A stretch of 64,000 nucleotides of DNA from Escherichia coli (lineage in GTDB: Bacteria > Pseudomonadota > Gammaproteobacteria > Enterobacterales > Enterobacteriaceae): NCBI RefSeq assembly GCF_003334785.1, contig NZ_QOWV01000001.1; one strand, 5' to 3'. Positions within the stretch are counted from its first letter, which is position 1. Each line of letters opens with the position of its first letter. The notes beneath the pieces were generated by a model that did not search any database, was not told the DNA's origin, and saw only the letters and a program-made list of their open reading frames with translations. Of this stretch, positions 905 through 57,559 are shown in pieces. A program made the position numbers and the translations under genes.

Positions 905-2050
905 TTAGCTTTGCGCGACTTTACGGGGGATAAAATCATTCGCCACCGCTTCGCCTTGCGGATTCAGCGGCTGCGGCTGGGGAATTTCCGGGATGGCGAC
1001 ATCCAGAAGCGGGAACAGCAACTCGCCAACCCGATACGCTTCTTCCAGATGCGGATAGCCCGAAAGCACAAAACTGTCGATGCCAAGCGCGGCATATTCG
1101 TTGATTCGCGCAGCGACCGTAGGACCATCGCCCACCAGCGCCGTCCCGGCACCGCCGCGCACTAAGCCAACGCCCGCCCATAAATTGGGGCTGATCTCCA
1201 GATTGTCGCGCTTGCCGTTATGTAACGCCGCCATTCGCTGTTGCCCTACGGAATCCGTCCGGGCGAATGCGGCCTGTGCTTTGGCGATAGTTTCATCATC
1301 AAGATGCGAGATTAACCGCTCGGCGGCCTGCCACGCTTCGTCGTTAGTTTCACGAACAATCACATGCAGACGAATACCGAAACGAATTTTGCGTCCATGC
1401 GCGGCAGCTTTCGCCCGCACTTGTTCGATTTTCTCTTTAACCAGTTCCGGCGGTTCGCCCCAGGTGAGGTAGAGATCAACCTGTTCTGCCGCCAGCTCCT
1501 GGGCGACATCTGACGATCCGCCAAAGTAAAGTGGCGGATACGGCTGTTGAATCGCCGGGAAGAGCAGTTTTGCTCCGCGCACATGAATATGTTTACCGTT
1601 GAAATCGACGGTTTCTCTCTGCAATAAACGCCGCCAGACCTGGGTAAATTCCGCCGAGGCTTCGTAGCGCTCGCTATGATCAAGGAACACTCCGTCGCCT
1701 GCCAGCTCTTGTGGATCGCTGCCTGTGACCAGGTTAAACAACGCACGTCCATTTGAGAGACGGTCAAGCGTGGCGGCCTGGCGGGCGGCAACGGTAGGTG
1801 AGGTTACGCTGGGACGCAGGGCGACAAGAAACTTCAGCCGCTGCGTCACCGGGATCATCGATGCGGCAACCAGCCACGCATCTTCGCAGGAGCGCCCCGT
1901 TGGAATTAGCACACCGGTATAGCCAAGACGATCCGCCGCTTGCGCAATTTGTTGCAGATAACCGTGATCAACCGGGCGTGAACCTTCTTCCGTTCCCAGA
2001 TAATGCCCGTCACCGTGGGTCGGTAAAAACCAGAACATATTCAGACTCAT
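905..2050 (-). CDS. ssuD: FMNH2-dependent alkanesulfonate monooxygenase SsuD
   Basis: 381-aa ORF starting [19 protein letters not shown], matching SsuD length and sequence as recalled. Confidence 0.93.
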
Positions 2051-56281: not shown

Positions 56282-56494
56282 TTAAGAGAGATAAACATTT
56301 GCCGCTGTTGGTCCTCGCAGGCCATTTACGCGGCAAAATTCCACACGTAATCCTGGTATAAGCACTTCTGCGTCGCGGGGAGTGAATGCGGAAATATGGA
56401 CCTGAACTTCTTTACGACCGTCGGAGGGGATAATGAATCCTTTGCCGCTTTTGCGATCAAAGGTTTTGACAATTCCTGTCATTTTACGGGACAA
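56282..56494 (-). CDS. cspH: Cold-shock-like protein CspH
   Basis: 70-aa [29 protein letters not shown]... Confidence 0.93.
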
Positions 56495-56779
56495 ACAAAT
56501 TCCTTACTGAAAATACTGCGCTGCACTATACGGGGTTAATAAAATAAAGCCAGCGATATTTAAGACCGCCGGACGGCTAAAATAAAATTTGCTTAATCTC
56601 AATTATCATGCGTTAATAGCTGCGTCGGTTTGAAAGACAGACAGCATACAAAGTAGTTTACTAAAGCAGTTCTCATTATCAGGCATTATCCCCTTCTTTT
56701 GAGTCTCTCTCCTGAACACTAAGTAGTTTCTGTATTAAAGCCCTGTTTGCCGAAAGGCCCAAAATGAAGGAAGTAAAAT

Positions 56780-56992
56780 ATGTCTAATAAAATGACTGGT
56801 TTAGTAAAATGGTTTAACGCAGATAAAGGTTTTGGCTTTATCACTCCTGATGATGGCAGCAAAGACGTTTTCGTCCATTTCACCGCCATCCAGAGCAATG
56901 AATTCCGCACGCTGAACGAAAATCAGAAAGTTGAATTTTCTATTGAGCAGGGGCAACGTGGCCCCGCGGCAGCGAACGTTGTTACGCTCTAA
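56780..56992 (+). CDS. cspG: Cold shock protein CspG
   Basis: 70-aa [29 protein letters not shown]... with RNP motifs; about 285 bp upstream leader. Confidence 0.95.
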
Positions 56993-57191
56993 GGTTGCCA
57001 TTATTACTCAACATCTCCATTTCCGCTGTCCATGTTGTCATGGTTCACAGTACCGCACATCGGCATTCGATGTGACGGAGCGAAACCCTTTGGGCGCTAA
57101 GTGTATTTTTTGTAAATCGACGATGATCACCTTTGATAACGTCGCGCTGCAAATACGCACTGACCATGCGCCGCTGGATTTCACAAAATAA
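56931..57191 (+). CDS. ymcF: Small zinc-ribbon-like protein (probable YmcF); start codon uncertain
   Basis: ORF with two CxxC pairs (HFRCPCCHG ... KCIFCKS). The only ATG (56931) lies inside cspG; the real start is probably later and non-canonical. Confidence 0.4.
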
Positions 57192-57396
57192 TATCAGGCT
57201 CCCTCGTGGAGCCTTTTTTATATCTGCCTTATTTTTCTTCAACGCTGTATGTATAGTAAGCGATAACCTGTTGATTATTGAATCTTTCGGGGAGATGGCT
57301 TATAACATTTCTTACCTGACCAGGGTACCGGGAACCAACACCTTACTGGCGTGTTGCTGTCTTTTAAGACCAGAAGAGGTTAACAGTGAATATTGA
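57166..57396 (+). CDS. ymcE: Small membrane protein YmcE (Sfa)
   Basis: ORF 57133..57396 trimmed to [28 protein letters not shown], 76 aa. Confidence 0.8.
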   Translation: MRRWISQNNIRLPRGAFFISALFFFNAVCIVSDNLLIIESFGEMAYNISYLTRVPGTNTLLACCCLLRPEEVNSEY

Positions 57397-57559
57397 AGAG
57401 TTAAAAAAACAAGCCGAAACGGAAATCGCCGACTTTATCGCGCAAAAAATCGCCGAGCTGAACAAGAATACAGGGAAAGAAGTCTCTGAAATTCGCTTCA
57501 CCGCACGAGAAAAAATGACCGGGCTTGAAAGTTATGATGTCAAAATCAAAATAATGTGA
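57386..57559 (+). CDS. gnsA: GnsA (secG null mutant suppressor) small protein
   Basis: GTG-initiated 57-aa ORF MNIEELKKQAETEIADFIAQKIAELNKNTGKEVSEIRFTAREKMTGLESYDVKIKIM; too short for the ORF track. Confidence 0.8.
   Translation: MNIEELKKQAETEIADFIAQKIAELNKNTGKEVSEIRFTAREKMTGLESYDVKIKIM

Follow-up and report, generated by a model that had tools for sequence, protein, structure and literature searches.

In Escherichia coli, infC (IF3) and pcnB carry an AUU start codon, and the AUU of infC serves autoregulation by the gene's own product, IF3 discriminating against such weak starts. The small gene ymcF, located immediately after the cold-shock gene cspG, belongs to the very few E. coli genes in which an AUU start is conserved. 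Like infC and pcnB, it has a conserved AUU or AUC initiator behind a Shine-Dalgarno sequence; unlike infC, it shows no evident autoregulatory loop, and unlike both, it is a second cistron, located 10 nt downstream of a gene that is translated at a very high level, and mostly carries ATG where that gene has been lost. In layout, cspG-ymcF is like coupled termination-reinitiation pairs, with 9-12 nt between stop and start, a Shine-Dalgarno sequence over the upstream stop and neither a terminator nor a promoter in between, although, in contrast to some such pairs, no sequestering hairpin is conserved at the csp-ymcF junction.

A paralogue resides in E. coli itself. In K-12, ynfQ (called ymcF by PGAP; WP_071524604.1) is located in the Qin prophage, where 10 nt separate it from cspI; the junction contains TGAGG, the start is ATT (L083), and the gene has been listed as "cold shock induced" (PMC11228462). 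Its product, likewise a PF23641 protein, agrees with YmcF in length, in its four Cys, in the ATT codon and in its position 10 nt after the csp stop; a 2026 review presents YnfQ with a rubredoxin topology in an AlphaFold-3 model (PMC13348028). The surroundings correspond as well, ynfQ being followed by a terminator, ynfR, ynfN and gnsB, and ymcF by a terminator and then a ynfN/ymcE-like gene and a gns gene. From the YmcF-like family PF23641 as a whole YmcF does not differ, being its founding member.

We analysed this locus within a 64,000-nt stretch of E. coli DNA (the window), whose cspG-ymcF sequence is 100% identical to that of many complete E. coli genomes. The features that delimit the reading frame are the following:

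56780..56992, + strand: cspG CDS, the first cistron (ORF list; RefSeq WP_000066490.1).
56931..57002, + strand: 5′ extension of the ORF as delimited in the first-pass annotation, from TTG 56931 up to the assigned start and outside the protein.
57003..57191, + strand: ymcF CDS, 62 aa plus stop (RefSeq, UniProt, Pfam PF23641, dN/dS).
57003..57005, + strand: assigned ATT start codon of ymcF (RefSeq CDS start; homologous codons across species).

In the translation of the window, the frame opens past a TGA at 56913-56915 on the + strand and closes at the TAA at 57189-57191, the last 26 nt being shared with annotated ymcE (start 57166). The first-pass annotation had correctly described this open, Cys-rich frame downstream of cspG, yet had not recognised it as the annotated gene ymcF. 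It had also stated that ATG, GTG and TTG are absent between the cspG stop (TAA 56990-56992) and the first CxxC, which the in-frame codons up to the first Cys codon (57027) bear out: AAG GTT GCC ATT ATT ACT CAA CAT CTC CAT TTC CGC. In contrast, its placement of the only ATG 60 nt inside cspG was mistaken, as the codon at 56931 is TTG. The portion of the frame inside cspG holds TTG 56931, TTG 56943, GTG 56958 and TTG 56979 and no ATG at all; the sole in-frame ATG is Met41 at 57123, which, like an in-frame GTG at 57072, lies 3′ of the first CxxC.

RefSeq annotates 57003..57191 (1804..1992 in the coordinates of locus L001) as ymcF, "cold shock small protein YmcF" or "cold-shock protein" (WP_071524879.1), taking the second of two tandem ATT codons as the first codon. 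The resulting 62-residue sequence is exactly that of UniProt YMCF_ECOLI, and its residues 1-62 match positions 1-62 of the 62-position Pfam model PF23641 (YmcF-like; E 1.7e-49). The locus was found in 5,404 of 5,426 complete E. coli genomes. ymcF is thus an already known, real gene with RefSeq, UniProt and Pfam entries rather than a new one. In the literature that we searched, ymcF and ynfQ figure only in gene lists, and no paper that maps the ATT start or comments on it came up. We place the probability that the frame is ymcF and is initiated at ATT 57003 at roughly 85%.

Selection on the frame is strongly purifying. Across 78 distinct orthologous sequences, the median pN was 0.12 as compared to a pS of 0.80, dN/dS was ~0.07 where synonymous sites were unsaturated, and column entropy was highest at codon position 3 (1.2 bits, versus 0.40 and 0.24 at positions 1 and 2). 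By these measures the frame is clearly coding, and the low dN/dS contradicts the option, left standing in the first-pass annotation, that it is not translated.

To compare start codons, we assembled 80 species-level loci from Enterobacteriaceae genomes, anchored on the CPxCxGSQ motif. The codon homologous to 57003 was distributed as follows:

ATT: 42 of 80 loci.
ATG: 31 of 80 loci.
ATC: 3 of 80 loci.
ACG: 3 of 80 loci, with ATG three codons upstream.
TAC: 1 of 80 loci, with ATG as the next codon.

Among the taxa with ATG are Klebsiella, Raoultella, Enterobacter, Leclercia, Lelliottia and Silvania. Of the options that the first-pass annotation had listed, initiation at a non-canonical codon such as ATT is therefore the one favoured by the comparison, given ATG at the very same codon in 31 species, the RefSeq start and the extent of the Pfam match. 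The preceding ATT (57000) is not conserved: most other E. coli have GTT there, and GAT, AAT or AGA occur elsewhere. An exact 91-mer with GTT-ATT occurs in 2,451 E. coli genomes, and the same 91-mer with ATG in place of ATT had no exact match in E. coli genomes (best 98.9%).

Two canonical-start alternatives bear on this assignment. The first, corresponding to the proposed overlap with cspG, has translation begin at a TTG or GTG inside cspG (56931, 56943, 56958 or 56979), giving a product of 70-86 aa whose N-terminus overlaps cspG out of frame. These codons are in frame in E. coli, and 70-72 aa forms from other genera with upstream starts have been deposited (P0004, P0016, P0020, P0033). The upstream starts are not conserved, however. 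In many orthologues the counterpart of 56931..57002 contains in-frame stops and no canonical start. Specifically, in at least 11 ATT loci (e.g. L008, L015, L027, L028, L036, L038, L044, L047, L048, L055 and L060) an in-frame stop is found 4-8 codons upstream, and ATG, GTG and TTG are lacking across the whole open frame before the Cys motif; including ATT loci L063, L068 and L075 brings these to 14 loci, for which the stop is 4-16 codons away and CPCC is not preceded by any canonical start. With a stop so close upstream and no canonical codon available, ATT would be the sole possible initiator in those loci. For Kosakonia (gap 9), the csp stop also serves as the in-frame stop. Moreover, the TTG at -8 is a by-product of conserved csp codons for Asn-Val-Val, residue 1 of the 62-aa form is where the Pfam model starts, and the ATG orthologues begin exactly at the position of 57003. 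A start within cspG is consequently very improbable.

The second alternative places the start at GTG 57072, yielding 39 aa without the first CxxC. The codon is canonical, and a 39-aa product with this N-terminus (P0124, MTERNPLG...) has been deposited for several E. coli O157 genomes in older automatic annotations. This is what a gene caller restricted to canonical starts would yield, at the expense of the first CxxC. Yet residues 5-23, which this start would discard, are among the best conserved of the protein (invariant C9 and C12; G14, S15, Q16, Y17 and R18), synonymous substitution is saturated across them, and the ATG orthologues begin 23 codons upstream of the GTG. We regard initiation at 57072 as extremely unlikely. 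For annotation, the lesson is that software accepting only ATG, GTG and TTG as starts either overlooks this core gene or cuts it to 39 aa, losing half the metal site.

The conserved part of the protein centres on two zinc knuckles:

57027..57038, + strand: first zinc knuckle, C9-P-C-C12; C9 and C12 are invariant in 43 sequences including distant homologues.
57102..57113, + strand: second zinc knuckle, C34-I-F-C37; C37 is invariant and C34 is present in at least 90% of sequences.

In the same 43 sequences, G31, A32, I35, F36 and K38 are invariant too, as reflected in the motif GAKCIFCK. Since C9, C12, C34 and C37 are the only possible metal ligands that are conserved, the predicted metal site is Cys4. 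The family is narrow, as a search of 1.84 billion representative proteins recovered only 42 clusters. AlphaFold2, run with the 43-sequence alignment, returned a mean pLDDT of 73, rising to 87-91 over residues 11-40, with short strands around both knuckles, a helix at residues 44-53 and a disordered tail. Sequence and fold searches against solved proteins gave no significant match; the weak structural matches were all of the zinc-ribbon or rubredoxin-like knuckle class. With two CxxC knuckles 21 residues apart, probably on β-hairpins, YmcF is like Cys4 zinc ribbons (the TFIIE-alpha zinc finger, the TFIIB N-terminal ribbon, eL43 and RPB12) and rubredoxin-like knuckles, from which its family is set apart by its own C-terminal helix and disordered tail. 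YmcF is thus predicted to be a 62-residue Cys4 zinc-ribbon protein, the likeliest class being small metal-stabilised proteins that bind nucleic acid or a larger protein.

Two other affiliations were considered for the protein. The stretch CPCHGSQY aligns locally with cytochrome b6f Rieske proteins (E 0.02-0.1), recalling box II (CPCHGS) of a Rieske-type [2Fe-2S] site. Distant members retain the GSQYR motif but neither C11 nor H13, having Q, L, S, G or K at H13 and K, A, H, T or S at C11, so that a Rieske site was rejected and the resemblance, judged by these replacements, is coincidental. YnfU, another small zinc-knuckle protein from the Qin prophage (ECs_2282 family), gave no BLASTP alignment with YmcF, and the NCBIfam match to that family reached 17 bits against a cut-off of 37; YmcF is not a member.

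We then examined the transcript on which ymcF lies, for which three further features are relevant:

56624..56779, + strand: cspG cold-shock leader, the 5′ UTR of the cspG-ymcF mRNA (Rfam match; alignment).
56990..56994, + strand: TAAGG, in which the cspG stop merges into a Shine-Dalgarno-like AAGG; 8 nt separate it from the ATT.
57196..57220, + strand: intrinsic terminator-like hairpin AGGCTCC-CTCGT-GGAGCCT (57196-57214) plus T run (terminator scan).

A -10-like promoter element, TGCGTTAAT, is present just upstream of the leader (~56609-56617). The Rfam cspA thermoregulator (RF01766) matches 56624-57046 with 159 bits (E 4e-43); this model comprises 428 nt, i.e. a whole cspA-type mRNA, and the match extends 54 nt past the cspG stop, over the ymcF start. 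On the + strand, the terminator scan detected no site between cspG and ymcF, the only one following ymcF, where the hairpin begins 5 nt after the stop; an equivalent hairpin is present at the paralogous cspI locus. A cspA leader before cspG and a terminator only after ymcF together argue for a two-gene cold-shock mRNA, cspG-ymcF. In published transcriptomes, ymcF is co-regulated with cspG and ymcE (PMC10920338), and upon butanol exposure it goes down together with cspG, cspH and cspI (PMC11728337). In every genus examined, ymcF falls within the cold-shock regulon. Further upstream in the window, cspH occupies 56282-56494 on the - strand, divergent from cspG, and K-12 records contain an IS1 copy farther upstream still.

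The 3′ end of this transcript overlaps additional small genes. The ymcE CDS (57166-57396) starts inside ymcF, and its first 20 codons traverse the terminator hairpin at 57196-57220. In the Qin prophage, the coding sequence of the 21-aa YnfR (MKAPSGAFLL...) crosses the corresponding hairpin in the same way, and the tagged protein, whose gene lies just downstream of the ymcF paralogue, was strongly induced by cold shock (PMC6001520). In Salmonella enterica subsp. diarizonae (L014), the Rfam sRNA STnc220 (RF02077, 102 bits) maps to 1647-1726 of the locus, where it overlaps the terminator of the ymcF orthologue together with the final 40 nt of that gene. The overlap is suggestive of an RNA derived from the 3′ end of the csp-ymcF operon in Salmonella; STnc220 had no match in the E. 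coli window.

At the junction itself, cspG and ymcF are separated by 10 nt. TAAGG or TGAGG coincides with the csp stop in 38 of the 39 loci in which a csp gene lies directly upstream. In the remaining one (L029), the csp stop has been shifted upstream (TAATG, gap 29) by a frameshift close to the end of the gene, and TAAGG is still found 10 nt before the ATT. Outside L029, the gap is 10 nt (9 nt in Kosakonia), and the last G of AAGG or GAGG stands 8 nt before the start codon in the csp-adjacent loci. RNA folding uncovered no conserved structure that might mask this region: the single-sequence fold at the junction was no better than shuffles (z-score -0.65), and RNAalifold on 22 csp-adjacent junctions gave a consensus of -1.0 kcal/mol with no supported helix, ruling out a conserved hairpin over the ymcF start.

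So short a gap invites the idea that ymcF is never initiated separately and that its sequence instead forms part of a CspG-YmcF fusion, produced through +1 frameshifting or readthrough of the cspG stop. Nature provides an in-frame case in Citrobacter sedlakii (L019), and in Kosakonia, with its gap of 9, the two frames coincide. The C. sedlakii csp, though, lacks RNA-binding motifs and looks degenerate, and many genera have ymcF alone, with ATG and no csp. More directly, the gap differs between loci (10 nt in most, 9 nt in Kosakonia, 12 nt in L086), so that the frame relation of csp and ymcF is not conserved, which speaks against a frameshift or readthrough product. Such a fusion is hardly credible, and separate initiation at the ATT is retained as our reading.

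Start-codon identity varied with the presence of csp, which was scored by tblastn with CspG and inspection of the upstream DNA. All 39 loci with csp directly upstream start with ATT (36) or ATC (3), and none with ATG, GTG or TTG; they represent Escherichia, Citrobacter, Salmonella, Kosakonia, Yokenella, Trabulsiella, Siccibacter, Intestinirhabdus, Pluralibacter and other genera. Conversely, csp is not adjacent in 41 loci, and 37 of these have ATG at the homologous codon or beside it. There, ymcF lies directly behind a promoter and leader alignable with those of E. coli cspG and cspI, sharing TGCGTTAAT, GGTTTGAA, AAGCAGTTCTCAT and a GCCGAAAGGCCCA-like box, and usually possesses an AGGAG Shine-Dalgarno sequence. 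An Rfam search for the cold-shock leader found no match in these csp-less loci even at E 0.01, which we attribute to the cspA model being mostly coding sequence; direct alignment was used instead.

Several loci retain traces of the missing gene. In the K. oxytoca group and Raoultella, the 3′ end of csp survives as a remnant, and Atlantibacter combines a decayed csp with a start region that reads ATT ATG. In C. sedlakii, where the degenerate csp is fused in frame to ymcF, the ymcF start is ATG. That csp-like ORF (~1297-1689 of L019) has altered RNA-binding motifs (VKEFN, FVPS) and has lost its stop, leaving a 130-aa ORF through ymcF.

Raw Fisher's tests of start codon against csp adjacency gave ~1e-18 for the 80 loci and ~5e-16 with extra loci, values that treat as independent loci that are not phylogenetically so; by rough lineage grouping, p was ~0.02. 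About seven separate csp losses were accompanied by gain of ATG. Exceptions occur in both directions. ATT or ATC is kept without an intact adjacent csp in at least four lineages (Pseudescherichia L040/L063/L068; L075; L084; L085), and a distant lineage (L086/L087) has an adjacent csp at a gap of 12 nt, with TAAGGAGG, and starts with ATG. The association, which may be a small new observation, suggests translational coupling; that YmcF synthesis depends on cspG translation has, on the comparative pattern, roughly even odds.

A mechanism in keeping with these data would run as follows. Translation of a conserved protein, encoded by the second cistron of the cold-shock cspG mRNA, would start at ATT 57003, and the TAAGG containing the cspG stop would supply the Shine-Dalgarno-like sequence 8 nt upstream. 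Ribosomes ending cspG translation 10 nt upstream, or 30S subunits held at AAGG, could then initiate at the weak AUU, and YmcF would be produced in a low, constant proportion to CspG, whose synthesis during cold shock is very high. Upon loss of the csp cistron, ymcF would come to lie directly behind the same leader, usually with ATG and AGGAG.

How much of this the choice of codon reflects can be weighed from the same loci. In one account, the ATT simply initiates weakly and so keeps YmcF at a low level, with 30S subunits binding AAGG de novo and independently of cspG translation. AAGG or GAGG 8 nt upstream in all csp-adjacent loci would suit this, as would the persistence of ATT or ATC without intact adjacent csp in the lineages named above and the use of ATG by the csp-adjacent L086. 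It sits less well with the avoidance of ATG, GTG and TTG by every one of the 39 csp-adjacent Enterobacteriaceae loci, and with the pairing of csp loss and ATG gain on about seven occasions. We consider de novo initiation quite possible, if short of an even chance. In a stronger version of coupling, the AUU or AUC start would be a selected device that ties YmcF to ribosomes terminating on csp, possibly also to the cold-induced rise of IF3; we offer this tentatively, as an idea that is on balance unlikely. If true, ymcF would have the third physiologically meaningful AUU start in E. coli, and the replacement by ATG upon csp loss would amount to an evolutionary experiment on reinitiation at non-canonical codons. 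Either way, the two natural states, i.e. ATT or ATC 9-10 nt behind csp versus ATG alone behind the leader, allow the metering of a second cistron by weak starts to be tested.

Among the exceptions, the Pseudescherichia-like loci L068 and L040, which have no csp, contain an 8-codon mini-ORF (ATG AAA AAA GGA CAC/TAC TAT TAT TAC TAA) ~20 nt upstream of ymcF that ends 3 nt after the ATT. Whether this mini-ORF could replace csp as the coupling partner is uncertain, as L063 lacks its ATG. Separately, one locus came from a record titled Chryseobacterium sp. 18061 (L058), whose csp-ymcF hardly differs from that of Citrobacter sp. 18056 (L059) from the same study; it probably represents contamination or a mislabelled assembly and not a Bacteroidota homologue.

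Finally, the csp-ymcF pair also travels with phages. Lambdoid phages carry a csp-ymcF-ynfN-gnsB block behind their lysis genes, and the copy in phage Tritos shows TGAGG, a 10-nt gap and ATT. The block csp - ymcF - ymcE/ynfN - gnsA/gnsB is accordingly seen in three settings: the chromosomal locus (56780-57559), the Qin prophage (5865-6923 of L083) and the intact lambdoid phage Tritos (978-2037 of L088), there behind the lysis genes. Its recurrence in Qin and in lambdoid phages argues that chromosomal cspG-ymcF-ymcE-gnsA is one copy of a phage-associated cold-shock cassette.
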